53,926 bases of DNA from Ignavibacteriota bacterium (GCA_016219595.1 JACRLY010000045.1:21211-75136); one strand, 5' to 3'; shown: positions 1 to 18,627, counted from the stretch's first letter. The notes: generated by a model from the sequence alone, not told the origin. Program-made: numbers and translations.

Positions 1-1973
1 TTTTGCTCAGCTTTCATCTTTTCATTCTCTGCCTTAATCTGCTCTTCGATACGGTGGTTTTCCTCGTAATCTATGCCAAGTGTTTCTGATACACCGTATT
101 CCTTTGGATAGAGATACTTACCTCGTTCCGCACCTTTTTTTTCCACCTCGACCTGTATCCGATAGGACTCGGCAAACGGATCGTGACGGATGCCAGTAAC
201 CTGCCAGGAGACTTTCACGTTCGGTTTATCAGTCTTGACTGTGAAGCGATTGTTTTGAATTTCTTCGCTTACGATTGCTTGAGCAAACTGTCCAATGACA
301 GTCAACTGGTATCGAAAGTCGGAGTTGAGTGCTTCAAAGTAATCCGGTAAAAAGACCGTTGCCTCGCCGTTGGCATCTGTGACAGCATTACCATCATAAA
401 CGTTTTTCATATCCGGCGATTCCACAAAGCTGTGATACAGATATTTATTTGCCGGATCCATCGGGTGGTCTATCATGAAGGAACCACCACCTTTGGAAAG
501 TGTTCCCGTCACTTGAACGTTTCCGCTGAACCTGCCAGCGTAATTGCCTCCACCGGTTTTATAGCCATATACCGCAGTGCCGGTAGTGCTGTTGCCCCTC
601 ACGCCGTAGCTGCTGAGTCCAATGCCAAACACGCCTGGGTTGCTGCCGTCGCCTTGGCCATATACACCTGTGCCGTTGATACTAATGCCAAACACACCGT
701 AGTCACTACCACTGGCGTTGCCGAGCACACCGTAGGTGCTGCCACCAAGGTATCCGTAATTGCCGCTGACGCTATTTTTGCCGTATACACCGTAATCACT
801 GCCGCTGGCACTGCCGTATACACCATAATTGCTGCCTCCAAGGTATCCAAAATTGTTGGCGCTATTGTTTTTGCCATAAACACCATAGCTGCTGCCACCA
901 ATGTATCCTACATTGCTGTTGTTGTATGATCCCCACACGCCGTAGTCGCTGCTGGCAAAGTGCCCGTTATTGTTACTGGTGGAATTTGTACACTGTAAAA
1001 TTATACCTGTGCTGCCGCTGAGTGATAGGGGGACATCAATGTTTAATGTCACATTGTCGCTTGTACCTCCACCTGACAATCCTGTTCCAGCGGTCACACC
1101 AGTTATATCCCCTGGCGCGAATGATAGGTCAGCGGCTTGAATCGTGCCATTCTGTATCTTATCAGAAGTGACAGCATTTGTGGCTATTGTTGGATTAGGA
1201 TAAATTCCTGTCAAATCGCCTCCTGCGGCACCACCGGGAGGAAGATTCACTCCTGGTGCAAGCTTCGCCTGAGTTACAGACTGGTTGGCAATTTTATCTG
1301 TGCTTACACCCCCGCTAGCAATAGAAAGGGACACATCACCCGATGTTCCACCTCCGGATAAGCCACCCTCTGCATTTACACCAGTGATGTCGCCCCCGCC
1401 GCCGCCTGGAGTGGCGGAAATCGTCAATGTATTACCATTTGAGGCAATGTTCACATTAGAACCTGCTTCAAGTATCACATCATCTTTCAATGTGTTGATG
1501 CTCTTCACCACCTGACCCGATGCAATACTCGGATTAGGGTATGTTCCTTCCAGGTCACCACCTGCACTAATGCCATTGATACTCTCTACGTTAGCAGAAC
1601 GAAAGCTATAACCGGAGCTTGTGAGTTGAATCCTCGGCACCATCTCAGTGCCGCTCCCGACTGTTATACCAAGCCAATAAGGTTTGTCAAAGGGAAGATT
1701 CATAGGAGTTGCACTTCCTAATATCACGTTAAAAATCCCGTTGCCGACAGCAACTGATGGCTGAACGTCAGTCCAGAGGGGGGTGCCGCCTGTTGCAACT
1801 TCGAATAGTTTGAATGTAATACTGTAGTTCCCATCAGGTACTACTACGCCGCTGGCATTTGTCAAAACACCCTGGTAGCTTATAGTCTTGGGAATCTGCG
1901 CTAAACTTAATGATGTAATAAAAAGCATCATCATTACGAAAGATAAAAATGTCCGAATCAATGATTTGTTCAT
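1..1973 (-). CDS. Secreted tail-fibre-like protein, paralog of 2749..4557 (3' end ~10 bp outside window)
   Basis: Not in the ORF track because the stop lies off the edge. ATG at 1973 with GGAGG SD. The parts translated by hand are open and in frame with the paralog: signal peptide, [13 protein letters not shown] domain, [15 protein letters not shown] repeats, C-terminal [25 protein letters not shown] domain. Bases 1..119 are identical to 2759..2877. Confidence 0.85.
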   Translation of the reverse strand, partial: MNKSLIRTFLSFVMMMLFITSLSLAQIPKTISYQGVLTNASGVVVPDGNYSITFKLFEVATGGTPLWTDVQPSVAVGNGIFNVILGSATPMNLPFDKPYWLGITVGSGTEMVPRIQLTSSGYSFRSANVESINGISAGGDLEGTYPNPSIASGQVVKSINTLKDDVILEAGSNVNIASNGNTLTISATPGGGGGDITGVNAEGGLSGGGTSGDVSLSIASGGVSTDKIANQSVTQAKLAPGVNLPPGGAAGGDLTGIYPNPTIATNAVTSDKIQNGTIQAADLSFAPGDITGVTAGTGLSGGGTSDNVTLNIDVPLSLSGSTGIILQCTNSTSNNNGHFASSDYGVWGSYNNSNVGYIGGSSYGVYGKNNSANNFGYLGGSNYGVYGSASGSDYGVYGKNSVSGNYGYLGGSTYGVLGNASGSDYGVFGISINGTGVYGQGDGSNPGVFGIGLSSYGVRGNSTTGTAVYGYKTGGGNYAGRFSGNVQVTGTLSKGGGSFMIDHPMDPANKYLYHSFVESPDMKNVYDGNAVTDANGEATVFLPDYFEALNSDFRYQLTVIGQFAQAIVSEEIQNNRFTVKTDKPNVKVSWQVTGIRHDPFAESYRIQVEVEKKGAERGKYLYPKEYGVSETLGIDYEENHRIEEQIKAENEKMKAEQ

Positions 1974-2165
1974 AAGATATGACCTCCATTTTGTTAAAAT
2001 GTTAACTAATTCAACAAGAAATAATAGACAAATTAAATTTCAATTAAAAACAAAAATTAAAATTCCAACCTTTTGAATTAATTCCATTTTATGTCTCCCT
2101 AAATGTAAATTAATTTACATTTATTCAAGGAGGTCATAAATTCTTTGTGCCATTAAGAAATTTTT
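1974..2165 (-). repeat. Duplicated leader of fibre gene, copy 1 (10-bp inverted repeat 1978..1987 / 2129..2138)
   Basis: Highly similar to 4558..4750; TATGACCTCC ... GGAGGTCATA; internal perfect palindrome TAAATGTAAATTAATTTACATTTA at 2100..2123. Confidence 0.85.
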
Positions 2166-2204
2166 TTAATACAGCATATAATGACAATTTAAATAATTAT
2201 TTTG

Positions 2205-2735: not shown

Positions 2736-2748
2736 TTGTTTACCCTCC

Positions 2749-4557
2749 TCACTTTACCTTTTGCTCAGCTTTCATCTTTTCATTCTCTGCCTTAATCTGC
2801 TCTTCGATACGGTGGTTTTCCTCGTAATCTATGCCAAGTGTTTCTGATACACCGTATTCCTTTGGATAGAGATACTTTCCTCGTTCTTCAGCGGTTTTCT
2901 CCACCTCGACCTGAATCCGATAGGACTCAGCAAACGGATCGTGACGAATACCTGTAACCTGCCAGGAGACTTTCACGTTCGGTTTATCAGTCTTGATTGT
3001 GAAGCGATTGTTTTGAATTTCTTCGCTTACGATTGCTTGGGCAAACTGTCCGATAACCGTCAACTGGTATCGGAACTCGCGATTGAGTGCCTCAAAGTAG
3101 CCGGGAAGGATGACTGTGGCTTCGCCGTTGGCATCTGTGATAACGTTGCTGTTGTAGATGTTCATCATATCCGGTGATTCCACGAAGCTATGATACAGAT
3201 ATTTATTTGCAGGATCCAGTGGATGATCAATCTTAAATGAGCCACCGCCTTTTGATAGGGTGCCGGTCACTTGGACGTTCCCGTTGAACCTGCCAGCGTA
3301 ATTCCCAGTTCCAATCCCACGGCCATACACCGCAGTGCCGTTATCGCTGTAGCCGTAAACACCGTAGGTGTTGTCGCCAAGGTATCCGTAATTGTTGGAG
3401 TTAATGTTACCTCCGAACACGCAGTAGTTGCTTCCGCCAAGGTATCCGATATTGCCGTTGTTGTTTTTGCCATACACGCCGTAGTAGCTTTCGCCAATGA
3501 ATCCGTAATTGCCGCTGCTGTTATCTTTGCCATACACACCATAGCTGCTTCCGCCAAGGTATCCGTAATTACCGCTTGTGTTATTTTTGCCGTATACACC
3601 ATGACCGCTGCCCAATAATCCGTTGTTTTTTTCTCCATACACACCAACAATTAGAGTAGTATTGCCTCCTGCTTCAAGCTTTGCAACATTTATATTTGTT
3701 GTGCTATTGATATCGGTACCAAGGATTGTGGCATCAGCAATCTTGGCTGTAGTAATTGCATTATCATTAATAGTAGGATTAGGGTATGTCCCTATCAAAT
3801 CGCCTCCTGCGGCACCAACGGGAGGAAGATTCACTCCTGGTGCAAACTTTGCTTGAGTTACTGACTGGTCTGCTATCTTTGCTGTTGTAACTCCTCCGTC
3901 TGAAATAGAAAGGGACACATCTCCCGATGTTCCGCCTCCGGTTAAGCCACCCTCTGCATTTACACCCGTTATGTCGCCTCCGCCTCCTCCGGGAGTGGCG
4001 GAAATGGTAAGGGTGTTCCCCGTTGGAGTGATTGAAACGTTTGAGCCAGCCACCAGTGTTACTGCATCGTGCAGGTCATTGATACTCTTGACCACTTGAC
4101 CCGAAGCAATAGTTGGGTTCGGATATGTTCCTGTCAAATCTCCTCCTGCACTAATTCCGTTGATACTTTCTGTGTTAGCAGAACGAAAGCTGTAACCGGA
4201 GCTTGTGAGCTGAATCCTCGGCGCCATCTCAGAGCCACTCCCGACTGTTATACCAAGCCAATATGGTTTGTCAAAGGGAAGATTCAAAGGAGTTGCACTT
4301 CCTAATATCACGTTAAAAATCCCATTGCTGACTGCAACTGATGGCTGAACATCATTCCAAAGGAGTGTACCGCCTGTAGCAACTTCGAATAGTTTGAATG
4401 TAAGACTGTAGTTCCCATCAGGTACAACTACGCCACTGGCATTTGTCAAAACACCCTGGTAGCTTATAGTTTTGGGAATCTGTGCCATACTTAATGATGT
4501 AATAATAAGCATCATCATTGCGAAGGATAAGAGTGTCCGAATCAATGATTTGTTCAT
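2749..4557 (-). CDS. Secreted tail-fibre-like protein with Gly/Tyr-rich repeats
   Basis: Signal peptide, ISYQGVLT N-terminal domain, [14 protein letters not shown] and GDITGV motifs, ~5 [17 protein letters not shown] repeats, C-terminal [23 protein letters not shown] domain and coiled-coil tail; no T9SS CTD. Confidence 0.85.
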
Positions 4558-4750
4558 GAGCTATGACCTCCATTTTGTTAAAATGTTAAATAATTCAATA
4601 AGAAATAAAAGACACACAATTTTACTTGAAAAACAAAAATTAAAATTCCAACCTTTTGAATTAATATCATTTTATGTCTCCTTCAATGTAAATCATTTTA
4701 CTTTTATATCAGGAGGTCATAAATACTATACTGATTTTAGAGATTTTTCA
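4558..4750 (-). repeat. Duplicated leader of fibre gene, copy 2 (10-bp inverted repeat 4562..4571 / 4712..4721)
   Basis: Same inverted repeat and near-identical span (160 vs 161 bp) as copy 1. Confidence 0.85.
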
Positions 4751-4958
4751 AATATAATATAAATCATCAATCTAAATGAATATTTTATTAAAATAATTCA
4801 ACATGAAAGACATGATCTATATTCTGTAAGTAATATAACATTATTTTTTTTCCTTTAATTCAGTAGTACTTGTTTAAAAACAAGAAAAATAAATATCACT
4901 TTGATATCAATCAAGTAATACTATAATTTTTAAAAATATTAATTGTAATCAATTTCGG

Positions 4959-5090
4959 TTAATATTTTTTCAATGTTCCTTGCCTGGCTTTTGCTTTTTT
5001 GTCTCATTCAATAAGAACTGAATTAATAAATTCTTCTTTATCTTTTCTCAGAGCTTGCATATCAAGACCAATATATTTCTGGGCTTTATC
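4959..5090 (-). pseudogene. nrfA: Out-of-frame C-terminal tail of nrfA
   Basis: Alternative frame reads DKAQKYIGLDMQALRKDKEEFINSVLIE*DKKAKARQGTLKKY*, resembling the Bacteroidota NrfA C-terminus; TGA at 5004..5006 where Trp is expected. Confidence 0.7.
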
Positions 5091-6768
5091 CCGGTTGTGA
5101 TATATTAAGCTTATAAAATATTAATTGGAGCATACCTCTTGCTTTCTCTGCTCTCTGGATAGATGTGCCAAGCACCCTTAGTGCTTCTACAGGGGAATGA
5201 AATCCGACGCTGTTTGCGGCAGCTACCCAATCCCAACGCCATTGAGCACTGCGTATTAAATCGAGTACCGGCTTTATCATTTCCTCACCGGCACCATTCT
5301 TCCATGCTATTTCAGCTTCCAGGTGTGCTTTTGTCAGTGATTCCTGTGCGATTTTCTTGATTTCTGTCACTTTATCTTGTCTTTCGTAAACATCTTTTAG
5401 CAATTGTTCTTCACTTTCACGATGGCATACCTGGCAGGAATTAGAAATATTATTCAGAGGGCTTTGTATGTGATGGTCAGTGAATTTTATACCTCCTTCC
5501 ACTTTGTATGGCATATGGCAGTCGGGACAGGATACACCTCTTTTTGCATGCACCCCTGTCATATATAATTCATAATCCGGGTGCTGAGCTTTCAGCATAG
5601 GTGTCTTACTAAGCTTATGAACCCAATCGTAATAATGATTTTCATCATAGTAGCTTTCCATGGAATCTGCGGCGAATCCCTTGTCCCATGGGAATGTAAG
5701 ATAGGAATTCGGCTTTTTGAAATAATATTCTACATGGCACTGGGCACAAACGAGAGAACGCATTTCATTGTGTGTTATACCTTCTATTTTTTTCCCATGC
5801 CTCGACAGTGCTTCGAGTAGTGCAGGCCTCGTGATTCTCAGGTTCATCGTTTTAGGGTCATGGCAGTCCTGGCAACCGATAGGATTAACTATTTCAGAAC
5901 CCATATCGAACCACTTGCCTTTATAAAAATTCTCTGCTCCGAGCTTAGCAATTATTCGTGGCACATCAGTACTTTTGCATGACCAGCAGGTTGCAGGCTG
6001 CGGGCTTTCCTTTACTCCACCGGTTCGTAAAGTCATTCTCACATCTTTAACCGCGTGGGCATGCCCTCTCCCCTGGTTATATTCTTTTGCAAAGGAATAA
6101 CCTGCCCAAATAATAACTAAATCAGGTTCGTTATCGACGTATTTAATCATGGCAGAACCGCCATACTTGCTCATAAAATTTGTGTCTAAGGTTTTCATAT
6201 ATGATTCGTATTCACGAGGGTAGTTCTCTCCCCATACTTCGTTTCGCGGCTCCCACTCATTAATATCTTTAACAGCCTGAAGTTTGGCTACAGATTCACC
6301 TCTTCGTTCGACTATTGATGCGGAAAAAAAATTCTTCAAATTTACATTTGATGCAGAAACAAGGTTTAACTGCTCCGAATGACAACGAAGGCAATTCTGC
6401 TGAACAGCTTCTTTGCCTGCCTCTTTGATGAAAATCACCTGCGGCTCTGTCCTTAATGTAAAAATAGTTGCATGCCTCAACCCATCCATTGCTTTGAAAT
6501 AATATTTCCGGAAAAAATTATCATGCGGCACATGGCAATCATTGCATGTTGCCACCCTTCGGTGGCTGCTATGCTCCCATGTTACATAGTGAGTACTCAT
6601 TACATGGCAATTGATGCATGCTTCAGGTTCATCCGATAAATAAGAAATTGCATTTGATACATAAATAATTTGTAATAATAATCCGCAGGCTATACCGAGA
6701 ATAATAATGACAGGAACCCTCCAACCGGGTGGAGGAGAGAACCTGTCAACAATTCTTTCTGTTTGCAT
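5086..6768 (-). CDS. nrfA: In-frame NrfH'-'NrfA fusion (cytochrome c nitrite reductase small + catalytic subunit), C-terminally truncated
   Basis: NrfH part: TM helix, SYLSDEPEACINCH, CNDCH, CLRCH. NrfA part: catalytic CWSCK, CQDCH, CAQCHVEYYF, KAQHPDYE, CPDCH, CQVCH. Confidence 0.85.
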   Translation of the reverse strand: MQTERIVDRFSPPPGWRVPVIIILGIACGLLLQIIYVSNAISYLSDEPEACINCHVMSTHYVTWEHSSHRRVATCNDCHVPHDNFFRKYYFKAMDGLRHATIFTLRTEPQVIFIKEAGKEAVQQNCLRCHSEQLNLVSASNVNLKNFFSASIVERRGESVAKLQAVKDINEWEPRNEVWGENYPREYESYMKTLDTNFMSKYGGSAMIKYVDNEPDLVIIWAGYSFAKEYNQGRGHAHAVKDVRMTLRTGGVKESPQPATCWSCKSTDVPRIIAKLGAENFYKGKWFDMGSEIVNPIGCQDCHDPKTMNLRITRPALLEALSRHGKKIEGITHNEMRSLVCAQCHVEYYFKKPNSYLTFPWDKGFAADSMESYYDENHYYDWVHKLSKTPMLKAQHPDYELYMTGVHAKRGVSCPDCHMPYKVEGGIKFTDHHIQSPLNNISNSCQVCHRESEEQLLKDVYERQDKVTEIKKIAQESLTKAHLEAEIAWKNGAGEEMIKPVLDLIRSAQWRWDWVAAANSVGFHSPVEALRVLGTSIQRAEKARGMLQLIFYKLNISQPG

Positions 6769-7259
6769 TAATTATAACTCCTGCTCGAATAAGTATGGGC
6801 AAAAACCGATGCACTTTCATTAATAGAATGGATGCTTTTGATTTTATCAATCGATTTCTCCCTTATCTCGAGCAAGGTGTCTTCACTTAACATTCTGTAA
6901 GTCAGATCGCGGAGCTTTCCCCATTTCTCATGAACAGGACAAGGCTTTTCAACAGTACACCCCTTAAATCCAAGGACGCATTTGTGAAAGATATCTAGTC
7001 CATCCATTGCTATCACAATATCAATTAAACGAATCTCGCTTAATGGCCTTCCGAGAGTGAATCCTCCTGATTTCCCCTTTTTTGAAACTACAATACTATG
7101 CACCGCAAGCGATTGAAGAATTTTAGACAGAAACTCCTTAGGAATTTTCAATCTTTTGGAGATGTCTGTTGCCGTAAAATATGTCTCCTCATCAAACACT
7201 GACAAATACAAGACAGCCTGCAATGCTAACTCACACTTCTTCGAAAAAATCACTGTCAT
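6768..7259 (-). CDS. Rrf2 family transcriptional regulator (3-Cys, probable Fe-S sensor)
   Basis: FLSKILQSL...SKKGKSGGF winged HTH; CVLGFKGCTVEKPCPVH; stop overlaps the nrf start (TAATG). Confidence 0.92.
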   Translation of the reverse strand: MTVIFSKKCELALQAVLYLSVFDEETYFTATDISKRLKIPKEFLSKILQSLAVHSIVVSKKGKSGGFTLGRPLSEIRLIDIVIAMDGLDIFHKCVLGFKGCTVEKPCPVHEKWGKLRDLTYRMLSEDTLLEIREKSIDKIKSIHSINESASVFAHTYSSRSYN

Positions 7260-7340
7260 TGTGTTACCATCTTAGAATTATTACCAAAAAGAACTAATCT
7301 ATTTCCAAATTACTTATTGATACGATATTATACAAGGCAA

Positions 7341-7424
7341 TTCGGGATTTTTTTGTCCAAATCTAAAATTTATTTGAAAATGACAAAGTTTTATTATATT
7401 TTAATATAGGATTTATATATCTGT
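7341..7424. promoter_or_regulatory. Two candidate Rrf2 operator boxes GGAT-N6-RTCY
   Basis: GGATttttttGTCC (7345..7358) and GGATttatatATCT (7409..7422) in the divergent intergenic region. Confidence 0.35.
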
Positions 7425-7435
7425 TAATAAAACTG

Positions 7436-7867
7436 ATGAAAAAAATTAAAAATGAAAATGTCATTGATAACCAGTCATTGTCATTTAAACAATGGCCCAT
7501 ACAATTGCATATGGTAGTGCCGAATGCCGAATACCTTAAAAATAAAGAACTTATAATAATGTCAACTTGTTCTCCTTTTTTCATTAAAGATTTGCATAAG
7601 GTCTATTTAGACGGCAAATCAGTTGTGATTGCCTGCCCCAAGCTTGATTATACAGAGCCTTATGTTGATAAACTGGTTGACATATTAAAGTCGGCTGAAA
7701 TATCAAAAGCAATAACTGTAGTCATGGATGAACATTGCTGTAACGGATTATCGGATATGTCAAAAACAGCCGCAATAAGGTCGGAAAGAAGAAAATTTTT
7801 ACTTGAAGAGCATAAAATAGGAATTAATGGTGCAATTTTAGAAAAATCTATTATATTTGAAAATTGA
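7436..7867 (+). CDS. Cys-rich Fe-S-associated domain protein (stand-alone C-terminal domain of 4Fe-4S ferredoxin-like proteins)
   Basis: QWPIQLH, TCSPF, IACPKLD, MDEHCCNGL motifs. Confidence 0.7.
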   Translation: MKKIKNENVIDNQSLSFKQWPIQLHMVVPNAEYLKNKELIIMSTCSPFFIKDLHKVYLDGKSVVIACPKLDYTEPYVDKLVDILKSAEISKAITVVMDEHCCNGLSDMSKTAAIRSERRKFLLEEHKIGINGAILEKSIIFEN

Positions 7868-8005
7868 AATTGATATAATACGTTAATAATAGTTAGGTTG
7901 GTAAAGTAGCTGTTTTTTTTGCACGATTTCATATATGCACACTCCCTTTGAATGAGATTTTGCAGCAGTTCTTTGCCAACCTTTATTTTATTTTTGGAGA
8001 TTATA

Positions 8006-8353
8006 ATGAACACAGATAAAGAAAATAATCTTTTTGGCAATCCTTCAGGACTAAATGAATTGATAGCTTATCAGCAGGGTTCTGTCGTAAGCAGGACATT
8101 AATCAATAAAAAAGCCGGTACTATTACTTTGTTTTCATTCGATGAGGGGCAAAGTCTCAGCGAACATACAGCCCCATTCGATGCATTTGTTCATGTATTC
8201 GACGGTGAGGCTGAAATCACAATCGGAGGTGTACCTCATCAACTAAATAGCGGTGATGCAATCATAATGCCTGGGGGAATCCCACACGCAGTCAAAGCTA
8301 TGAAGCAATTCAAAATGACTTTGGTGATGATAAAGCAGATTGAAGAAAAATAA
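8006..8353 (+). CDS. Cupin domain protein
   Basis: TLFSFDEGQSLSEHTAPFDA...GEAEITI...MPGGIPHAVKA; GGAG SD before ATG 8006. Confidence 0.9.
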   Translation: MNTDKENNLFGNPSGLNELIAYQQGSVVSRTLINKKAGTITLFSFDEGQSLSEHTAPFDAFVHVFDGEAEITIGGVPHQLNSGDAIIMPGGIPHAVKAMKQFKMTLVMIKQIEEK

Positions 8354-8364
8354 TCTTTCGATTT

Positions 8365-8907
8365 ATGAATAATTTAATTCCGATTACAAAAGTTGAGGAT
8401 ATTCCTTTTATTTATTTGGATTCTCCAATCGGATTGCTCTTGCAATATCATAATCTCGGAAAGAATTATGATACATTCACAAAAGCACAACTCCTGATTG
8501 GCATGTGCATGGACAACCGAAAGCACCTTCACATTCCCGACAATTTTGCTTTTATTATTCGAACAGGCGGAGCTAATCTGCGATACAGCGAATTCAAGGT
8601 TTCCTATGCTATATCGGTAGGTCAGGTCAGCCATATTGCTTTAATCGGTCACAACAATTGCGGAATGGTAAATCTTGTGTCGAGAAAAAATGAATTTATT
8701 AACGGACTTGTCGAAAATGCAGGTTGGACAAAAGAAATTTCCGAAGAGCATTTCAATCAATTCGCTCCCATGTTCGAAATCGGAAATGAAATAAATTTTG
8801 TATTAAGCGAAGTCAAAAGATTACGGCTCAGATACCCAAAAATTCAGATTGCACCTATGATGTATTTGGTAGAGGATAATAAGCTGTATTTAATTGATGA
8901 AAATTAA
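8365..8907 (+). CDS. Beta-class carbonic anhydrase
   Basis: Zn ligands CMDNR and GHNNCGM; IRTGGA. Confidence 0.85.
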   Translation: MNNLIPITKVEDIPFIYLDSPIGLLLQYHNLGKNYDTFTKAQLLIGMCMDNRKHLHIPDNFAFIIRTGGANLRYSEFKVSYAISVGQVSHIALIGHNNCGMVNLVSRKNEFINGLVENAGWTKEISEEHFNQFAPMFEIGNEINFVLSEVKRLRLRYPKIQIAPMMYLVEDNKLYLIDEN

Positions 8908-9190
8908 TTATTTCTCCACTAATAAAAATAGAAAATAGATAACACTGATAAGACGGATAAACACGAATAAGAGAAAATCAGTAGCATAGTATAATCAGTA
9001 TTCGATTATATTTTGAGTGTTGTGTTATTAATTTTGATTTTGATTTGATAATTTGAACATTATAAATTCATTCAAAATTCATATTTATGAGATAAAATCT
9101 CTTCGAGTGCTTTGTGATTTATCTTTGTGAACTTTGTGTTAAAATTGGATTTTGTTTATCTAATAAAATTTTAATCATTAAAAATTTAAT

Positions 9191-9655: not shown

Positions 9656-9741
9656 CACTCCAAATTAAATATTTTTTCCCATATAATACCTAATAGTCTA
9701 ATTACCTACAGTCTAAATCACAACATTTTATTAACCTATTT

Positions 9742-9846
9742 GCATTGGGAGTAACACCCAATGCGGTTTGCTCTTATTTATTTGTTTCGAGAGTAATTCC
9801 CGACACGGTTTTAAATTGTTCACTATTCGTTATTCATTATTCACTA
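9742..9846. repeat. Two REP-like palindromes plus TTCACTA-type heptamer run
   Basis: GCATTGGGAGTAACACCCAATGC (9742..9764); degenerate GTTTCGAGAGTAATTCCCGACAC (9784..9806); four heptamers 9819..9846. Confidence 0.7.
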
Positions 9847-9995
9847 AAATAAAGCCGGAATTGCCTCAGAATCACCATCATTACTCATTTCATCTCTATT
9901 CATTTTAATGTAGGGAAAAACTCCCCACATGGTATATTTTTTTTAATCATTCATCATCTAAAAAATAAGAGACAATTCACGGCTCTTCAAACGAA

Positions 9996-10478
9996 TCAGG
10001 TAAAAATGATATTTGCTCCTGCAGACACTTCATAAAACTGCCCTACGGAAATAATTTCATCTACCTCATCACAAAAATCAGATTTTGTTAAATGAAACAT
10101 ATCCACCGATGCCTTGCATGCATATATATTGCATCCTGCATCATGTATCATAGTTAAAAACTCCCTCACCGGCGGAATATCAATTTTTTCCATTTCTTTT
10201 TTCATCATCGAAGTAGCAAAAGCAGACATCCCGGGAATGCTTCCTAAAACTGTAGGCATGTGCATCGCAGGATTTCCTACTGTAGCCACTTTCAGCTTGT
10301 CCATTCTCTTATTAATGATTGCATCCATTCCGAAGAATGTAAAGAAAAGATTTGCTTCTATGCCTGCCATTCTTGCTCCATTTGCCATGATTAACCCGGG
10401 ATACACTCCTTCGAGTGAGCCATGGGAAACAATAATTGACACTTTTTCAATCGGTTGACCATTACCATTATTTTCCAT
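9996..10478 (-). CDS. DsrE2-like (DsrE/DsrF/DrsH-like) sulfurtransferase
   Basis: LFFTFFGMDAI...YACKASVDMF...ANIIFT. Confidence 0.88.
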   Translation of the reverse strand: MENNGNGQPIEKVSIIVSHGSLEGVYPGLIMANGARMAGIEANLFFTFFGMDAIINKRMDKLKVATVGNPAMHMPTVLGSIPGMSAFATSMMKKEMEKIDIPPVREFLTMIHDAGCNIYACKASVDMFHLTKSDFCDEVDEIISVGQFYEVSAGANIIFT

Positions 10479-10551
10479 TATTTCTTCCTTTAATTTTTCT
10501 TTTATTATTTAATTAATATTTACTTTATAAACTTTACAAACTTTCAACTTT

Positions 10552-10869
10552 TTAGATGCACCCTGTCGGCTTTGGCAAACCTGCAACCTTAGCCGCCTTC
10601 TTTGCAGGTCCCTTTGGGAATAAAGCATAAAGCTCTTTTGTTTCAACACCACTTTCTTTTGTAAGTTTCCTTATTGAAGGTGCATCGCCTTTTTCCATAT
10701 ACTCCTTACGCATAAAGTTAATGACAAGCCAGTGCCTGTCTGTTAATTCAAGAACACCTTCTTCTTTAGCAAGCTCGACTGCAACCTCTTCGTTCCAATC
10801 GTCACGGTTCTTCAAATGATTGTCGTTGTCAAATTCAAGCATCTTACCTAATATTTCTCTTGCTGCCAT
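10552..10869 (-). CDS. tusE: TusE/DsrC-family sulfur relay protein (single C-terminal Cys)
   Basis: LTDRHWLVINFMR...LYALFPKGPAKKAAKVAGLPKPTGCI; lacks the second DsrC cysteine. Confidence 0.9.
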   Translation of the reverse strand: MAAREILGKMLEFDNDNHLKNRDDWNEEVAVELAKEEGVLELTDRHWLVINFMRKEYMEKGDAPSIRKLTKESGVETKELYALFPKGPAKKAAKVAGLPKPTGCI

Positions 10870-10901
10870 TTTTTTTACTCCTTTAATTTATCTATTGATA
10901 T

Positions 10902-11011
10902 CGTGTCGGGAGTAACTCCCGACACGGTTTTATTATTATTTACTAATTATCTAAACATTTACAGTCTAGTTGTTTATTCATTTTTCACTGTTCACTATTC
11001 ACTATTCACTA
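10902..11011. repeat. Perfect palindrome CGTGTCGGGAG-TAA-CTCCCGACACG followed by TTCACTA heptamers
   Basis: 11-bp stem at 10902..10926; heptamers at 10984..11011 contain the stop codon of the DUF1641 gene. Confidence 0.8.
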
Positions 11012-11677
11012 ATTCTTATTCTCCGCCATTCCTTTAACCAGCTTCGTAACAAAGAGCAGTCCTTGCTTCATCTCTGGCTTATTCAATTCTCTTAATAAAC
11101 CGAATAACGAAATGTTACCTGCTTTTTCCATATTCATATTCTTATAAATATCAACTGCATTATTCACTGTTGTAAGCATTTCCGGTTGTGTCAGATTCTT
11201 AATCGTATTCAATATCATAACAATATTATCCCCGAGATTTTTTACATCTTGCGGTGAAAATGATGTAACGATTTTATCCATTACATTAAATGCTTCCTTT
11301 GAGAACTGGAAATATCCTGCTCTGTCCATTTCATCGAATTTCAGTAGCAAAGACTGGAAAATTTCTTTCGAAATCACCTTAGCATCATCAAGAAAATCTC
11401 TTGCACTCTCGATTTGTTCGAATGCATTTGACAAATTGTTCGTATTTCTCACCAGCTTTTTCAGAAGATGAAGAATATCACCTGTCTGTAAATGATTCGA
11501 AAGCTCTTCAAATTCCTTCAATGAAGTCTGAAACACATCTTTTGCTACAATCATAAGGTCATCCTTCAGGTCTTCCATTTCAAGACGGTGGCGTCTCTGG
11601 TATTCAAGCTCCTGCACTATGAAGTCAAGCTTGTCATTCAGTGCATCTATCCTGTTATTTACATCTGTGTCAGTCAT
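11009..11677 (-). CDS. DUF1641-like helical protein of sqr clusters
   Basis: C-terminal ISLFGLLRELNKPEMKQGL motif; directly downstream of sqr. Confidence 0.75.
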   Translation of the reverse strand: MTDTDVNNRIDALNDKLDFIVQELEYQRRHRLEMEDLKDDLMIVAKDVFQTSLKEFEELSNHLQTGDILHLLKKLVRNTNNLSNAFEQIESARDFLDDAKVISKEIFQSLLLKFDEMDRAGYFQFSKEAFNVMDKIVTSFSPQDVKNLGDNIVMILNTIKNLTQPEMLTTVNNAVDIYKNMNMEKAGNISLFGLLRELNKPEMKQGLLFVTKLVKGMAENKN

Positions 11678-11678
11678 A

Positions 11679-12908
11679 TCAATACCTCTTTCCTGCCATT
11701 GACATATTCGAAGTAACAGGCAATTCTTGTCCTCTTAAAAGCAAGTTCCAGTACATCCAGCGGAACATCACTTTCCCATAGTGATTCATCTTTGTTTCCT
11801 GCAATAGCGAAAATGGTCCTATTCCCGGCAATGGATATTTACCCGGCAACGGCTCAACATCGAAGTTGAAATCTATCAATAGTCCTTTACCGTATCCTGA
11901 TTCGATGAAGCAATTTGCGTGACCATCGAATTTTGCTCTCATCGGTCGTCCTTCTACAGCATTCAGGAAATTATCATAAAGAATTTCAGCTTCGAAGTGA
12001 GCCACAGAACCTGCCTTTGAACTCGTCAGGTCTGTCGTGTCGCCTATAACAAATATATTAGGATAATTTTTCGATTTTAGTGTCTCTTTATCTGTTGCAA
12101 TATAATTGAACTCATTTCCCATCCCGCTTCTTTCGATTGCCGAGTCACCTTTATTTGTCGGAATTGTTACAAGCACATCATAAGGAATTTCCTGCTCATC
12201 CCACGAAACAATAACTTTCTTTTCATTATCAACTCTTGCAATTCCGAACTCAGTGGTTAGCTTTATATTTTTCTTTTCGAGTATATCTCCGAGTATGCCC
12301 GAAGCAATCGGTTTTGTGAATGCTCCCGGCAATGGTGTTACAAAATGTATATCAACTTTATCCCTCATTCCCATTTGTGTGAAAAATGAATCTGCAAGGA
12401 ATAAGAACTCGAGTGGAGCAACAGGGCATTTTATAGGCATTTCAACAATATTCAATACAAGCTTTCCACCTTCCCAGGATTTGAAGAAATTAGCCAATGC
12501 ACAGGCACCTTCCAATGTATAGAAATCGAATTTGTTCTTATGCCAGTTTTCGTCTATCAATCCTTCAGTTTCTTCGGGATGAATATGAGTTCCGGTTGCA
12601 ACGATTAAATAATCATAACTCAGAATCTGATTGTTCTTAAGAAGAACTCTATTGTTATCCGGTTCAACTTTATCAATCTCTGCGATTACAACTTCAACAC
12701 CTCTCGGATAAAAATCCCTTTTTGGCTTCATTACATCCTTTGATGTATAAATTCCAAATGGAATGAATAGAAATCCGGGCTGGTAATAATGTGTCTCGCT
12801 TCTGTCAACAATCGTTATATGCCATTTACTTTGGTCAAGGACTTCGTGCAGTTTATTGGCAATTATTGTTCCTGCTGTCCCTCCGCCTAATATTAACAAC
12901 TTTTTCAA
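11679..12908 (-). CDS. sqr: Sulfide:quinone oxidoreductase (type III-like)
   Basis: GGGTAG FAD motif, HYYQPGFLFIPFG, IKCPVAPLEF, SKAGSVAHF, FDGHANCFIESG; TTG start. Confidence 0.9.
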   Translation of the reverse strand: MKKLLILGGGTAGTIIANKLHEVLDQSKWHITIVDRSETHYYQPGFLFIPFGIYTSKDVMKPKRDFYPRGVEVVIAEIDKVEPDNNRVLLKNNQILSYDYLIVATGTHIHPEETEGLIDENWHKNKFDFYTLEGACALANFFKSWEGGKLVLNIVEMPIKCPVAPLEFLFLADSFFTQMGMRDKVDIHFVTPLPGAFTKPIASGILGDILEKKNIKLTTEFGIARVDNEKKVIVSWDEQEIPYDVLVTIPTNKGDSAIERSGMGNEFNYIATDKETLKSKNYPNIFVIGDTTDLTSSKAGSVAHFEAEILYDNFLNAVEGRPMRAKFDGHANCFIESGYGKGLLIDFNFDVEPLPGKYPLPGIGPFSLLQETKMNHYGKVMFRWMYWNLLLRGQELPVTSNMSMAGKRY

Positions 12909-13245
12909 TTTAACCTCAATTCAAAAAACTATATTTTAAACTATCAAATTTTCTTCTATTCAAAAATATAGCTTTATTGACTGAAAAGCAAGAAAAATAT
13001 TTTAGTAAGTCCTTGATTTTTAATTATTTAGGAGAATATAAAAATTGTTTTTAGTTTGACTAAAATTATAACTCTATGGCAATATTGAAGATGGATTAAT
13101 TATTTTTTCAATTAAAATTTATAAAAATCCAAAAGTAATTTTTATAATAATTTGCTATCATAACAGCCGATTATTATAATATTTTGCTATTATAACGGAA
13201 AATTATTATATTTGTCATTAAATTTATTAAATATATAGATTTAGA

Positions 13246-14370
13246 ATGATAGAAAGAGAAGTATCAAAATTATTAAATGCAAGACTCGGCAAAAAGAAAG
13301 CATTGATTGTTGTTGGAGCAAGGCAAGTTGGTAAAACTACACTTGTTCGCCACATAGCGTCTAATTTTATAGGAAAAAATATTATCTGGAATTGTGATGA
13401 ACCCGATGTTCGTAGTAGATTAGAAAATCCCACATCAACACAGCTGAAGCAAATGATAGGCAATAACAAGCTGCTTGTAATTGACGAAGCACAAAGAATT
13501 AATAATATCGGAATTACCATTAAACTAATTGTTGATAATATTCCTGATGTTCAGGTGATTGTTACCGGCTCTTCTTCGCTCGAATTGGCAAAAGGAATTT
13601 ATGAACCATTAACAGGCAGAAAGTTTGAATTTAAACTTTATCCTTTTTCTTTCGGTGAACTTGTTGCACATACTTCGTTACTTGAACAAAGACGTCTTCT
13701 TGAACATAGAATCCTCTATGGCTTTTATCCTGATGTTGTGAATAATCCCGGAGATGAACGTTCAAGATTGAATGAAATAATCACGAGCTACCTTTTCAAG
13801 GATATTTTTACTTTCGGTAATATCCGCAAACCGGATATATTCGACCGCCTGATAAAAGCACTGGCTCTACAAATCGGGAATGAAGTGTCATACAATGAGC
13901 TGTCAAAATTGGTTGGTATTAATAAAGAGACAGTTTATAAATATATTGATTTATTGGAAAAAACATTTATTGTTTTCGTTCTCAATTCATTCAGCAGAAA
14001 TCAACGGAATGAGTTGAAGAAAAGCAAAAAAATATATTTTTGGGACACCGGAATAAGAAATGCAATTATTGATAATTTCAATTCAAAAGAACTCAGGAAT
14101 GACTGGGGATTTTTGTGGGAAAACTTCATCATCAGCGAGAGAATGAAATTCGTCAGCAATACAGGTAAATACCGGAATTATTATTTCTGGAGAACTGCTC
14201 AAAAACAAGAGATTGATTTCATTGAAGAATATGACGGTGAACTGCATCCTTACGAGTTCAAATGGAATCCAAAAGTTACTGCTAAATTGCCAGGAACGTT
14301 TTCATCAGCTTATGGAGATTATGATTTTAAAGTTATAAATTCTGAGAATTTTCTCGAATTTATAAAATAA
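13246..14370 (+). CDS. AAA+ ATPase (AAA_14) with DUF4143 domain
   Basis: GARQVGKTT, IDEAQ, TGSSS, KIYFWDTG, EIDF...EFKW. Confidence 0.9.
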   Translation: MIEREVSKLLNARLGKKKALIVVGARQVGKTTLVRHIASNFIGKNIIWNCDEPDVRSRLENPTSTQLKQMIGNNKLLVIDEAQRINNIGITIKLIVDNIPDVQVIVTGSSSLELAKGIYEPLTGRKFEFKLYPFSFGELVAHTSLLEQRRLLEHRILYGFYPDVVNNPGDERSRLNEIITSYLFKDIFTFGNIRKPDIFDRLIKALALQIGNEVSYNELSKLVGINKETVYKYIDLLEKTFIVFVLNSFSRNQRNELKKSKKIYFWDTGIRNAIIDNFNSKELRNDWGFLWENFIISERMKFVSNTGKYRNYYFWRTAQKQEIDFIEEYDGELHPYEFKWNPKVTAKLPGTFSSAYGDYDFKVINSENFLEFIK

Positions 14371-14561: not shown

Positions 14562-15641
14562 ATGGCAGAAAACAAAGAAGGCCAGGAAAAAACCGAACCG
14601 GCGAGTGCGAAGCGTCTGAACGAAGCACGAGCCAGGGGACAGGTTTCAAAAAGTATGGATGTTACCACAGCGGCAATGATGCTGTTCGGGGGGCTTATTA
14701 TCTTTTTGTTTGGGAAGTCCCTGATTTCTGCTTTCCAGGATTTTATGAAATACATTTTTTATAATTCATCGAGCATCACCCTTACTGATAATAATGTAGG
14801 TAGTTTGTTTATGCAGCTTCTGCTATTGCTTTCCAAAATACTCCTTCCCATTCTTATTCTAATTATGTTGATTGGCTTTATTGCAGAAGTATCGCAAGTC
14901 GGATTTAGGTTTGCAACAAAAAAATTCACCGAAGGACTTCACTTCAAACAAATCTTCAACCCGTTCAGCGGATTGAAAAAAATATTCATGTCGGGAAGGG
15001 CGGCATTCGAACTCGTGAAAAGTTTTGCTAAACTGCTCCTATTCTCTTTGATTGTTTACCAGGTTCTCTCATCCAGAGCTGAAGAAACAATAGGGCTGAT
15101 GGAAAGACCAATCGCGGACATAGGTGCATTCATAGCTGAAGTTTGCTTTGAATTATTGATTAAAGTTTCAATCGTTTTCATTCTCGTAGCAATTGCCGAT
15201 TTCTTCTATCAGAAATACAGGTTCAAAGAAGATATGAAGATGACCAAGCAGGAGACAAAAGAAGAAACCAAGCAAACCGAAGGCGACCCGAAAATCCGCC
15301 AGAGAATCAGGTCAATCCTCCGTTCCCGTTTGAGAAAACTTATGTTGAAGAAAGTCAAAACTGCAGAAGTCGTTATAACCAACCCGACTCACTTTGCAGT
15401 TGCACTCAGCTACAAATCCGAGAATATGTCTGCTCCAATCCTCGTTGCAAAAGGTGTTGACTTCCTCGCATTGCAAATCCGTGAAATTGCCGAGCAAAAC
15501 GGTGTTCCGATTGTCGAAGACCCGCCACTTGCACGTGTTATTTTCTATAAAGTTGACGTTGAGCAGGAAATCCCCGAAAACCTTTTCAAAGCAGTGGCAC
15601 AAGTTCTCGCTTATGTATATCATCTGAAGCGAAGAGCTTGA
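14562..15641 (+). CDS. flhB: Flagellar export substrate-specificity switch FlhB
   Basis: EKTEPAS..R...AR.RGQV, four TM segments, MTKQE.KEE.KQTEGDP, autocleavage motif NPTH. Confidence 0.95.
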   Translation: MAENKEGQEKTEPASAKRLNEARARGQVSKSMDVTTAAMMLFGGLIIFLFGKSLISAFQDFMKYIFYNSSSITLTDNNVGSLFMQLLLLLSKILLPILILIMLIGFIAEVSQVGFRFATKKFTEGLHFKQIFNPFSGLKKIFMSGRAAFELVKSFAKLLLFSLIVYQVLSSRAEETIGLMERPIADIGAFIAEVCFELLIKVSIVFILVAIADFFYQKYRFKEDMKMTKQETKEETKQTEGDPKIRQRIRSILRSRLRKLMLKKVKTAEVVITNPTHFAVALSYKSENMSAPILVAKGVDFLALQIREIAEQNGVPIVEDPPLARVIFYKVDVEQEIPENLFKAVAQVLAYVYHLKRRA

Positions 15642-15886: not shown

Positions 15887-16375
15887 ATGAAGAAGCTGAA
15901 ACTATTTTTTGTAACAACCATATTCTTTTGCTTTAACCTGGTTTTATTATATTCTCAAAACACAATTCCAAGTACGGGTAAAGATGTAACATGCAGCTCC
16001 GGCTCTGTGAGTTATTCTATCGGACAATCATTTTATAATATTGATTACGGAAATAACGGTTCAATAATTCAGGGAGTTCAGCAGCCTTTTGAGATTTCTG
16101 TAGTCGGCGGCATTGATGAATCTGATTGTATAAAACTTAACTGTTCGACTTATCCTAATCCTGTTTCAGAATTTCTTAATATTTCAATTGAAGGATTCAC
16201 TTATAATAAATATTACGCAACATTATATAATTCTGTCGGAAAAAAAATAAAAGAAATACAAATTGTTAGCGATGAAACACTAATTGATATGAAGAATTTA
16301 GCATCGGGGAATTATTATTTAAATGTGATGAATCAGAATTCGGCTTTTAAAGTATTTAAAATTATTAAGAATTAA
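15887..16375 (+). CDS. Small T9SS type A sorting-domain protein (short N-terminal beta module + CTD)
   Basis: Signal peptide, GSVSYSIGQ...QGVQQP module, YPNP...LASGNYYL...FKIIKN CTD. Confidence 0.88.
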   Translation: MKKLKLFFVTTIFFCFNLVLLYSQNTIPSTGKDVTCSSGSVSYSIGQSFYNIDYGNNGSIIQGVQQPFEISVVGGIDESDCIKLNCSTYPNPVSEFLNISIEGFTYNKYYATLYNSVGKKIKEIQIVSDETLIDMKNLASGNYYLNVMNQNSAFKVFKIIKN

Positions 16376-16509
16376 TGTACAAAATATTAAAATTACAATT
16401 ACTGTTTTGATTGAATAATATTAAAAGTTATTTAAATCAATCATAAAATATATTCCAGGTTTATTGACAGAGAATAATAATTTTATTACCAAATAAATAT
16501 GGGATAAAT

Positions 16510-18627
16510 ATGAAAACTAAAATCAGATTAATCGTTATTTATTTTATCGCACTGACAAATATAATATTTTCATTCTCACTTCTAAGTCAGGCACCACAAA
16601 AAATGAGCTACCAGGCTGTTATTCGTAATTCAAGTGACCAGTTGGTCAGAAACACACAGGTTGGAATGCGTATTAGCATTTTGAAAGGAACTGCCGGTGG
16701 AACAGTGGTCTTCACAGAAACACAGATGCCAACAACCAATGCGAACGGCTTGATTAGTATTGAAATTGGTGGAGGAGCCGGTTTTGCTTCAATTGACTGG
16801 TCATCTGATTTATATTTTATTAAAATCGAAACAGACCCTTCCGGAGGAAACGATTACACTATTTCCGGAACAAGTCAATTGCTCAGTGTACCTTATGCAT
16901 TCCATTCTAATACTGCAGAAAGATTAGCAGGAAGTTCAAATGAAATTGACCCAGTTTTCATGGCTTCACCAGCTAATGAAATTACTAATTCAAATATCAA
17001 TAACTGGAATTCTGCTTTTAACTGGGGTAACCATTCAACTGCCGGTTATTTGACAACTGAAGTTGACGGCTCAGTTAACAATGAAATAGAACTTCCGTCT
17101 CAATCAGGTAATTCAGGTAAATTCCTGACAACTGACGGCACAAACGCACTATGGACAACATCTTCAACAGATGAAACTGACCCTGTTTTTACAGCATCTC
17201 CTGCAAACAATATAACAAATGCAAATATTAACAACTGGAATTTAGCATTTGGCTGGGGTAACCATTCTACTGCAGGTTATCTAACATCAGAAATAGATGG
17301 TTCTGTTACAAACGAAATCGAATTGCCATCTCAGACAGGAAACACCGGTAAGTATTTAAAGACAGACGGAACAATAGCATCATGGTCTGATGTTAGTGCT
17401 CCCGGTTGGAGTTTAACAGGAAATAGCGGAACTAACCCAACTGCAAATTTTGTTGGGACGACAGATGCTCAGGCTTTTGTAATCAGAACAAACAATGTAA
17501 TTCGCACACGTATAACCACGAAGGGACAGATTGAAATTTTGAATACAGGCAATTCAGTTTTTATAGGTGATGGTGCCGGAAACAGCGATGACCTGTCAAA
17601 TAATGCAAATGTGTTCATTGGCTATCATGCAGGTTTAAATAATACTACAGGAAGCTCAAACATCGGTATTGGTAATAATGCATTGAGAGGGAACACAACA
17701 GGGAGCTCAAATGTTGCAGTAGGCAATGCCGCACTTTCAGATAATACTACAGGTTTAATGAATACTGCATTCGGAAATGGTGCATTGAATTTTAGTACAA
17801 CTTCCAGTTCAAATACGGCAGTCGGTTATCAGGCACTAAAACTAAATTCAACAGGTTCTTCAAACTCAGCTTTAGGATTATATTCGCTTTATAATAATGA
17901 TGATGGGATTTCCAATACCGCTTGTGGGACTTGGACATTGTATGAGAATACCTCAGGACAGTACAATTCTGCTTCCGGGGCTTCGGCATTAAGAAGCAAC
18001 ACTACAGGAAATTATAATACTTCTATGGGTTATTCCTCATTATACAACAATACTACAGGTTCTGAAAATACTGCTTTTGGGAAAGATGCTGCCCAAGGCG
18101 GCAATTATAATAATATTTCAGCTTTTGGCTATGATGCCGCTCCAACTGCAAGCAACCGTGTTCGTATAGGTAATTCGAGTGTAACACAAATTGGAGGTCA
18201 GGTCGGCTGGAGCACTCTTTCGGATGCGCGAATAAAAAATAATATTCGCGAAGATGTTAAAGGTCTCGATTTTATTATGAAATTACGTCCTGTTACTTAT
18301 ACTTTTAATAAAGACAATGCCGATGCACTGATAGGAGTAGTTGATGAAAGCATCTCCCCGGAAAAATATGATATTGAAAGAATAAGATTTAGCGGTTTCC
18401 TTGCACAGGAAGTGGAACAGGCGGCGATAATTTCAGGATATAATTTCAGCGGTGTAACAAAACCTGAGAACGAACGTGATTTGTACAGTCTTCGTTATGC
18501 AGAATTTGTTGTTCCATTGGTTAAAGGGATGCAGGAACAACAGTCTGTAATTGAACAACTCAATCAACGCATAGAAATGCTTGAAAGTCAAATAAATGAA
18601 ATGAAATTATTAATTGGGGAAAAATAA
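16510..18627 (+). CDS. Tail-fibre-like trimeric adhesin with Peptidase_S74-type intramolecular chaperone
   Basis: Signal peptide, QAPQKMSYQAVIRN domain, two 77-aa repeats, ~17-aa NTAxGxxALxxNTTG solenoid repeats, SDARIK...LRPVTY...GFLAQEVE, coiled coil; no T9SS CTD. Confidence 0.88.
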   Translation: MKTKIRLIVIYFIALTNIIFSFSLLSQAPQKMSYQAVIRNSSDQLVRNTQVGMRISILKGTAGGTVVFTETQMPTTNANGLISIEIGGGAGFASIDWSSDLYFIKIETDPSGGNDYTISGTSQLLSVPYAFHSNTAERLAGSSNEIDPVFMASPANEITNSNINNWNSAFNWGNHSTAGYLTTEVDGSVNNEIELPSQSGNSGKFLTTDGTNALWTTSSTDETDPVFTASPANNITNANINNWNLAFGWGNHSTAGYLTSEIDGSVTNEIELPSQTGNTGKYLKTDGTIASWSDVSAPGWSLTGNSGTNPTANFVGTTDAQAFVIRTNNVIRTRITTKGQIEILNTGNSVFIGDGAGNSDDLSNNANVFIGYHAGLNNTTGSSNIGIGNNALRGNTTGSSNVAVGNAALSDNTTGLMNTAFGNGALNFSTTSSSNTAVGYQALKLNSTGSSNSALGLYSLYNNDDGISNTACGTWTLYENTSGQYNSASGASALRSNTTGNYNTSMGYSSLYNNTTGSENTAFGKDAAQGGNYNNISAFGYDAAPTASNRVRIGNSSVTQIGGQVGWSTLSDARIKNNIREDVKGLDFIMKLRPVTYTFNKDNADALIGVVDESISPEKYDIERIRFSGFLAQEVEQAAIISGYNFSGVTKPENERDLYSLRYAEFVVPLVKGMQEQQSVIEQLNQRIEMLESQINEMKLLIGEK
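16939..17400 (+). repeat. Intragenic tandem duplication, 2 x 231 bp (77 aa)
   Basis: E.DPVF.ASPAN.ITN.NINNWN.AF.WGNHSTAGYLT.E.DGSV.NEIELPSQ.GN.GK.L.TDGT occurs twice. Confidence 0.9.

Follow-up and report, generated by a model that had tools for sequence, protein, structure and literature searches.

A conserved gene cassette pairing predicted phage-like surface fibres with small type IX secretion cargo proteins in Ignavibacteriota and other phyla

The stretch of DNA considered here, referred to as the window, comprises 53,926 nucleotides (nt) from an Ignavibacteriota bacterium (GCA_016219595.1 JACRLY010000045.1:21211-75136, corresponding to C69:21211-75136 of a 132-contig assembly, G000) and carries three genes for fibre-like proteins together with two small genes, here called adaptors, whose products end in the C-terminal domain (CTD) of type IX secretion system (T9SS) cargo. 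A sequence-only reading of the window had proposed that the two gene types form a pair, in which the adaptor provides in trans the secretion or anchoring signal that the fibre lacks. All five open reading frames (ORFs) on which that proposal was based exist where it had placed them, and their conserved pairing, its distribution across genomes and its possible meaning are described below.

The three fibre genes follow a common plan, with a signal peptide, an N-terminal domain (N-domain) and variable distal parts. Fibre gene 1 (P0001; 3..1973, minus strand) is interrupted at its 3' end by the scaffold gap that marks the window edge, and 657 residues of it could be read. In its product, the signal peptide precedes an N-domain (1569-1901), a stalk of Gly-rich repeats and an 'IDHPLDP' tip domain. 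The gene has a tandem paralogue in fibre gene 2 (P0003; 2749..4557, minus strand), whose 602-residue product starts with a signal peptide; its N-domain occupies residues 25-135 (4153-4485) and is 93% identical to that of P0001, and its tip domain (residues 418-540, 2938-3306) shows homology with tail-fibre and minor-tail proteins of phages. Fibre gene 3 (P0005; 16510..18627, plus strand) is of the S74 type; its 705 residues begin with a signal peptide and an N-domain (residues 26-140, 16585-16929), from which a stalk of repeats leads to a Peptidase_S74 chaperone (PF13884; residues 571-638, 18220-18423; 39.3 bits, cut-off 22). The S74 match starts at residue 571 with an SDARIK motif of the SDxRxK type, whose Ser and Lys we take to be the catalytic pair of a putative S74 cleavage. 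Alignment confirms that an N-domain of approximately 110 residues, located directly after the signal peptide, is common to all three fibres, as the sequence-only reading had described, with 25% identity between P0005 and P0003. However, the Gln that opens its proposed fibre motif is not fibre-specific, since it follows the predicted signal-peptidase site in both gene types, in agreement with the Bacteroidetes Q-rule, according to which Gln occurs after this site (PMC5837995). Neither P0001, P0003 nor P0005 matches PF18962 (Por_Secre_tail), TIGR04183 or PF13585 (CHU_C) at E<=0.1, and the claim that the fibres lack a T9SS CTD thus holds for the window; it also holds for 67/70 paired fibres, discussed below.

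Structure prediction from 60 sequences gave the N-domain of P0003 (window 4153-4485) as a beta-sandwich (predicted local distance difference test, pLDDT, 85.8). Foldseek returned no PDB match to this model at E<=1e-3, and no PDB sequence matched P0003 or P0005 at E<=0.01. A wide VIA-align search reached a best Z of 7.1 with an archaeal pilin (8fk7_A), below the tool's noise mark of 8. The CTDs of mirolase (8qb1_A, Z 6.7) and PorU (6za2_B, Z 6.4) were also among the fold matches, both within the noise band and surrounded by many immunoglobulin (Ig)-like and fibronectin type III-like sandwiches, all below Z 8; these matches are no evidence for a CTD-like fold at the fibre N-terminus. The N-domain is thus modelled as a generic beta-sandwich to which fold searches assign no family. 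In Arthrobacter and Prochlorococcus phages, tail-fibre and minor-tail proteins share 35-39% identity with the tips of P0001 and P0003 (best phage-protein match of P0003: 39% identity, 3e-8). With respect to phage tail fibres and tailspikes, the C-terminal S74 chaperone of P0005 and the tip of P0003 are points of similarity, whereas the signal peptides, the absence of a prophage context and an N-domain without a phage match are points of difference.

The best NCBIfam match of all three N-domains is Bdello_MAT_N (NF053851; P0005 39.3, P0003 30.5 and P0001 25.2 bits), covering profile positions ~2-77 of 162, and because these scores fall below the cut-off of 60, the domains are related to this subfamily rather than members of it. 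According to the available text of Caulton et al. 2024 (PMC10769870), Bdellovibrio bacteriovorus has 21 mosaic adhesive trimer (MAT) fibres in S74 and non-S74 subgroups. The genes described here resemble them in encoding Sec-exported, cell-encoded and phage-like proteins with a conserved N-terminal base, swappable stalks and tips and many copies per genome. Further similarities are the signal peptide followed by a base domain, the occurrence of both an S74 tip (P0005) and non-S74 phage-like tips (P0001 and P0003), and an N-domain fold that, like the MAT base domain in the portion of that study available, has no clear PDB relative (PMC10769870). On the other hand, the host is an Ignavibacteria-class organism with a T9SS, and its fibres have a CTD-bearing partner gene, which is not mentioned for MAT fibres in the same text (PMC10769870). 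The fibres described here are presumably trimeric, cell-made and phage-like surface fibres of the MAT type. The surface anchor of MAT fibres is left open in the available text of the only experimental study of such fibres (PMC10769870).

The two adaptors of the window share a layout of signal peptide, module of ~60 residues, short linker and type A CTD. The sequence-only reading had recognized the same architecture, with a module put at ~45-50 residues. Adaptor 1 (P0002; 2205..2735, minus strand; 176 residues with a signal peptide) lies 13 nt downstream of fibre gene 2; its module occupies residues 24-85 (2481-2666) and its CTD residues 98-174 (2214-2444; PF18962 36.9 bits, TIGR04183 36.5 bits). 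Adaptor 2 (P0004; 15887..16375, plus strand; 162 residues with a signal peptide) is of a divergent type and lies 134 nt upstream of fibre gene 3, with the module at residues 23-80 (15953-16126) and the CTD at residues 89-162 (16151-16372; PF18962 41.0 bits, TIGR04183 32.8 bits). Both adaptors exceed both curated cut-offs (PF18962 27 bits, TIGR04183 23 bits). Their modules are ~28% identical and have a G-x-G-Q ... F core in common. In a full-length adaptor model built from 103 sequences, the CTD reached pLDDT values of 94-98 and the conserved module 43-57, from which we infer that the module may need a partner or an oligomer in order to fold.

An exhaustive profile search of 1.84 billion representatives with a weak 5-sequence module profile recovered 408 clusters (50% identity) at E<=1e-3. 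Among the 150 of these 408 matches that were listed, most are proteins of 170-200 residues with the module at residues ~20-85. Por_Secre_tail was found in 93/103 small module-family members, and a Pfam search of these 103 proteins found no family covering the module, which appears to be an undescribed element at the predicted mature N-terminus. A word-based homologue search with the module retrieved six proteins, and an ESM Atlas search retrieved unnamed clusters with scores <=0.85, which serve as a lead only. PamT, the tip pilin of the Pam pilus of the candidate phyla radiation (CPR; NF058579), was tried as an identity for P0002 and rejected at 17.3 bits against a cut-off of 240; the match (E 0.0025) covers residues 9-71 and includes the signal peptide. 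In the available text on this pilus, PamT has a truncated Ig-like domain that accepts a donor strand (PMC13278184), and the resemblance is a lead for a strand-complementation idea only.

Within the home genome, profile searches of its ORF set identified eight fibre N-domain genes and five module-bearing genes. Contig C69 carries three fibres and three adaptors, C93 one of each, and C71 one adaptor followed by a giant fibre gene split into two ORFs and by three more fibre genes (at least four fibre genes). All five module-bearing small CTD ORFs are located 1-134 nt from a fibre gene. The association is specific for the module: of 198 ORFs matching a CTD profile, 20 have <=230 residues, and the 15 of these that lack the module are all located on contigs that carry no fibre gene. 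The pairing proposed by the sequence-only reading is therefore real and wider than claimed, but the cassettes at the left of the window are not independent of each other. The window begins at a scaffold gap, a run of N at ~C69:21204-21210, and to the left of this gap the last fibre codons are repeated and followed by a second 176-residue adaptor with a 90% identical module, the second copy for which an inspection of the left flank had been suggested. These features indicate that the two left cassettes arose by recent tandem duplication. The duplication of fibre plus adaptor probably broke the assembly at this point (window 1-10; G000:C69:21101-21215, L015), and cassette copy number may accordingly be wrong.

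The distribution of the two families was examined in 301 genomes of the class, using the N-domain profile and the weak module profile, which matched 154/301 and 116/301 genomes, respectively; fibre N-domains often occur in at least ten copies per genome. Tallies by family vary together: N-domain and module were matched in 21/21 and 20/21 genomes of family f7, in 0/15 and 0/15 of f8, and in 2/26 and 2/26 of f12. Families f5 and f17 have fibres and no match to the weak module profile; a richer 60-sequence module profile gave weak to moderate matches in 5/5 f5 genomes, two of them beside a fibre. Pairing was then counted in four samples, all of which agree with the neighbourhood enrichment predicted by the sequence-only reading. 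In the adaptor-centred sample (best adaptor match in the first 60 module-matched genomes listed, one locus per genome), a fibre N-domain ORF lies on the same strand within 200 nt in 38/60 cases, one of which (L037) was counted only through its second locus L108; one further case is convergent and 21 have none. In the fibre-centred sample (first-listed fibre match in the first 51 N-domain genomes, 40 loci being new and 11 shared with loci analysed before), an adaptor is immediately adjacent in 32/51 cases and present in the same fibre cluster in three more. A pattern scan of GTDB species genomes, based on a 9-sequence N-domain alignment, yielded a cross-phylum sample of 71 loci, with an adaptor on the same strand within 300 nt in 41, at 1.1-1.9 kb in three more and absent in 27, ~16 of which are cut inside the fibre gene or just after its 3' end. 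The record titles, which for metagenome-assembled genomes are unreliable as taxonomy, include Ignavibacteria, Caldithrix/Calditrichota, KSB1, Eisenbacteria, Fermentibacteria, Zhuqueibacter, Rhodothermus and others. Finally, the divergent module of P0004 was found at ten places in eight other genomes (300 scanned), with a fibre N-domain ORF directly downstream in 10/10.

Across 104 pairs, the spacing is operon-like, with median gaps of 25 and 32 nt and 13 overlaps, and both gene orders are represented. A genome of ~3000 genes that has at most 18 fibre genes would give adjacency by chance in ~1.2% of cases, and the nominal probability of 38/60 is 1e-57; since related genomes are not independent, this value says only that the adjacency is not due to chance. 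A conserved fibre-adaptor cassette in several phyla of the Fibrobacterota-Chlorobiota-Bacteroidota (FCB) group is thus well supported. The recent tandem duplication at the left of the window, together with the phage-like fibre tips, might be read as a sign that the adjacency is a functionless by-product of duplication or of prophage remnants. This is very improbable, as the cross-genome counts contradict it: the same pairing is seen again in several phyla, whichever gene comes first, adaptor and N-domain found no match at E<=1e-3 in 50,697 phage records, and the cassettes of the window are surrounded by housekeeping genes. Those located between its two loci (cytochrome c552, Rrf2, DsrE/DsrC and FlhB) are unrelated to fibres, and by gene content the loci do not lie in a prophage.

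The paired genes have also diverged together. In 60 pairs, the distances of modules and N-domains correlate with a Mantel/mirror-tree Pearson r of 0.61, a value reached by none of 2000 permutations. Distance ranks likewise agree within the home genome, where the outlier N-domain (P0005) is found with the outlier module (P0004). Such co-divergence points to inheritance and divergence as a unit and is not proof of contact.

Taken together, these features lead to the interpretation that the cassettes encode surface fibres of the MAT kind adapted to a bacterium with a T9SS, in which the adaptor docks onto the fibre base, anchors it through the T9SS and probably co-exports it; we assign this reading a probability of roughly 55%. 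The fibre would reach the periplasm by the Sec pathway, presenting the conserved beta-sandwich base at its mature N-terminus, followed by a variable stalk and a tip that would be either a self-cleaving S74 chaperone or a phage-type tip domain. Its small partner, also exported by Sec, would carry the ~60-residue module at the mature N-terminus, ahead of a short linker and the type A CTD. The module, predicted to be unfolded on its own, would fold onto the fibre base domain, and the adaptor CTD would take the complex, or at least the adaptor itself, through the SprA translocon. PorU would then remove the CTD and link the new C-terminus to anionic lipopolysaccharide (A-LPS), such that the mature partner would be a short LPS-linked peptide that keeps the base of the fibre on the cell surface and lets its tip face outwards. 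We infer from sequence that the adaptor binds the fibre, is co-exported with it, is processed by PorU and anchors the fibre to the surface. Among them, anchoring of the fibre base seems to be the better-supported half and the conserved role, while export in trans is likely for the CTD-less majority and is not required by the data.

The C-termini of the fibres bear directly on these two roles. Among 83 complete paired fibres, Pfam annotation of the first 70 identified S74 in 15, Por_Secre_tail (PF18962) in three and CHU_C in none, leaving 67/70 without a CTD. The three CTD-bearing fibres are giants of 3092-3762 residues, each with an adjacent longer adaptor of 325-360 residues, and in two of them the CTD is preceded, at a distance of ~80 residues, by a weak match to S74 (21.7 and 17.4 bits; cut-off 22). 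If S74 cleaves, these giants would shed their own CTD, and a separate anchor at the base would make sense. Because giants keep the adaptor despite having S74 and a CTD, anchoring is ranked above export in trans as the conserved role. The argument of the sequence-only reading that the fibre C-terminus is occupied, and that the CTD is for this reason supplied in trans, cannot be a complete explanation, given the giants that retain an adaptor beside their own CTD and the presence of S74 in only 15/70 fibres. As a whole, the earlier interpretation is partly supported.

Several observations weigh against the docking interpretation. The three giants with their own CTD indicate that a CTD in trans is not always needed. 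The mirror-tree correlation would also follow from inheritance as a unit in the absence of contact, and inter-protein covariation (mutual information with average product correction, 55 non-redundant pairs) revealed no residue pair above re-pairing controls (top value 0.303; control maxima with a mean of 0.244, a standard deviation of 0.028 and a highest value of 0.317). No fibre-adaptor fusion was found in 98 fibre ORFs or in 154 representatives; as 150 of the 408 module clusters were listed, rare fusions may have escaped this comparison. Furthermore, pairing is incomplete in both directions: the 21/60 adaptors with no fibre gene nearby belong mostly to a highly conserved, single-copy stand-alone subfamily found in varied neighbourhoods (loci L022, L023, L025, L029, L031-L033, L035, L057, L067, L071 and L075) in genomes with 7-18 dispersed fibre genes, and 16/51 sampled fibres have no adaptor in view, although in five of these cases the contig ends within a flank. 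Two of the genomes with a stand-alone adaptor contain 12 and 18 dispersed fibre genes for this single adaptor. The possibility that fibre N-domains are uniform in such single-adaptor genomes was rejected, as median identities are 0.32 and 0.19, compared with 0.39 in the home genome. One adaptor facing 12-18 diverse fibres counts against simple one-to-one specificity. If one adaptor serves all fibres, it would have to recognize a few invariant features of the N-domain, for example the N-terminal QxPxxISYQG strand, although recognition through this strand by a single adaptor is speculation.

The missing covariation signal, the stand-alone adaptors in varied neighbourhoods and the fibres with no adaptor in view are what would be expected if both proteins served the same process without binding each other, the small protein being an independent surface peptide, such as a co-receptor, a spacer in the LPS layer or a self-protection factor, while the fibre binds another element and exits by another route. 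To our knowledge, Bdellovibrio has no T9SS. It nevertheless displays MAT fibres, as reported in the available text of the study cited above (PMC10769870), which also fits such a division of labour. However, the adjacency is module-specific (5/5 as opposed to 0/15 small CTD ORFs), it has been kept over several phyla and in both gene orders, and the divergent module goes with the divergent N-domain; in addition, the CTD-less fibres show no sign of another route across the outer membrane, with no search for such a route having been made. A shared process without mutual binding is therefore regarded as rather unlikely.

A single adaptor accompanying 12-18 fibres would be easier to reconcile with a catalytic helper than with a stoichiometric anchor. 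The small protein could thus assist assembly or export, binding the base transiently or capping the N-terminus during trimerization before being secreted or discarded via the T9SS, and be absent from the finished structure. Tight operon coupling, co-divergence and a module predicted to be unfolded alone are all compatible with such a helper, which has, however, no obvious need for the CTD carried by 93/103 family members. Moreover, the module also heads larger CTD cargo, and Pfam and NCBIfam searches revealed no chaperone-like family match in the adaptors. A helper role is accordingly judged unlikely.

The module in larger proteins also counts against the docking interpretation. Among the matches listed, 21 proteins have at least 240 residues and carry the module N-terminally before cohesin/dockerin, PKD or Ig-like passengers, 13 of them with a CTD; one protein has two modules and another four. 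A module that heads longer proteins with other passengers is not only an 'adaptor'. It might instead represent a general N-terminal docking or oligomerization tag of T9SS cargo, for instance one that forms trimers or binds LPS, with fibres being mere frequent neighbours in fast-evolving surface islands, an idea with which the many other CTD genes around the cassettes (an additional 63 CTD ORFs in the loci examined) would also agree. Yet these other CTD genes of the same islands lack the module, a median gap of 25-32 nt denotes a much more specific association than membership of the same island, and longer module-bearing proteins also adjoin fibre genes (loci L089, L103, L108 and L123), making a general tag quite improbable. 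A further arrangement was observed at L068 (G239:C6; 7322-10203, minus strand), where a 300-residue module CTD protein is followed 2 nt downstream by a 658-residue signal-peptide protein in place of a fibre; it may be a variant cassette.

Comparison with known secretion systems places the proposed docking and anchoring by the adaptor in context. Type A cargo of the T9SS is exported in a CTD-dependent manner via SprA/PorV, after which PorU/PorZ remove the CTD and attach A-LPS, as described in the available text of two sources (PMC8545088, PMC4804311). By sequence, the adaptors are ordinary type A CTD proteins, and their genome also encodes PorU, SprA and a PorV-like protein. The difference lies in the distribution of parts: type A cargo combines passenger and CTD in one chain, whereas here the putative passenger fibre and the CTD are on separate chains and the adaptor's own passenger has only ~60 residues. 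SprB of Flavobacterium johnsoniae has its own type B CTD, and its partner SprF is an outer-membrane protein; other type B CTD cargo of this species likewise has PorP/SprF-like partner genes. The cassettes resemble SprB/SprF in that a large surface filament gene has a small dedicated neighbour for T9SS secretion or attachment, but they differ in the lack of a CHU_C/type B CTD in all 70 fibre C-termini and in a partner that is itself soluble CTD cargo. A conceptual parallel is provided by Tat (twin-arginine translocation) 'hitchhiker' proteins such as E. coli PaoABC, in which, according to the available text, a signal-less subunit crosses the membrane on a signal-bearing partner through a translocon for folded proteins (PMC4273604). 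The proposed T9SS case differs in membrane, machinery and signal.

By profile matches, the home genome encodes T9SS genes. PorU scores 823.6 bits (cut-off 420) and is adjoined by a PorV-like gene (241.4 bits against a cut-off of 250), while SprA (398.8 bits; cut-off 200) was recovered in pieces at G000:C113:59812-66412 that hold two in-frame stops, one TAG and one TAA. These stops may reflect an assembly error or a broken translocon gene, and a possibly broken sprA matters for any T9SS-based model in this organism. A 342-residue ORF in the window (30941-31969, plus strand) matches SprA-model positions 375-586 with 73.5 bits, below the cut-off, and no Pfam family; it is a stand-alone SprA-like fragment located far from the real sprA on C113. 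To the left of the window, 274 nt downstream of the left adaptor copy and on the same strand, a gene at L015 6655-8304 (minus strand) encodes a 550-residue secreted leucine-rich-repeat protein (LRR_14 207.5 bits). The gene immediately upstream of adaptor 2, in the same orientation, is a flagellar export gene, flhB (Bac_export_2, 388.9 bits; window 14562-15641, plus strand), probably by coincidence. On C71 (L014; G000:C71:23000-42761), the giant fibre gene is split into ORFs of 1736 and 898 residues (~3360-11200 and 11660-14270), which reflects either a frameshift or an assembly error, and the fibre gene that follows lacks the first 28 N-domain positions. The window stretch is present in four DNA sequencing runs of one groundwater study, with no RNA run listed for it.

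Docking by the module, delivery by the T9SS and tethering to LPS form a plausible mechanism, unpublished as far as the literature search reaches: a full-text search, outside which most subscription journals lie, did not turn up any account of piggy-backing on the T9SS or of an adaptor that provides the CTD on a separate chain. A more specific form of this mechanism is put forward tentatively, namely that the T9SS exports and anchors a CTD-less trimeric fibre bound to a ~60-residue docking peptide, which after PorU processing would remain as an LPS-linked socket for MAT-type fibres across FCB phyla, with one socket per cassette in some genomes and a universal socket for a dozen or more fibres in others. 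T9SS cargo described so far has its sorting domain in the same chain, and a CTD provided by a separate small protein, if true, would be a new mode of use. It would also change the prediction of T9SS secretomes, which at present leaves out proteins that have no CTD. The short docking module might in addition serve as a protein-display tool on Bacteroidota surfaces. For the biology of these organisms, the adaptor represents a concrete candidate for the element that fixes cell-made, phage-like adhesive fibres to the cell, and such fibres probably influence how adhesion, predation or phage-like recognition proceeds among the many uncultured bacteria of sediment and groundwater.

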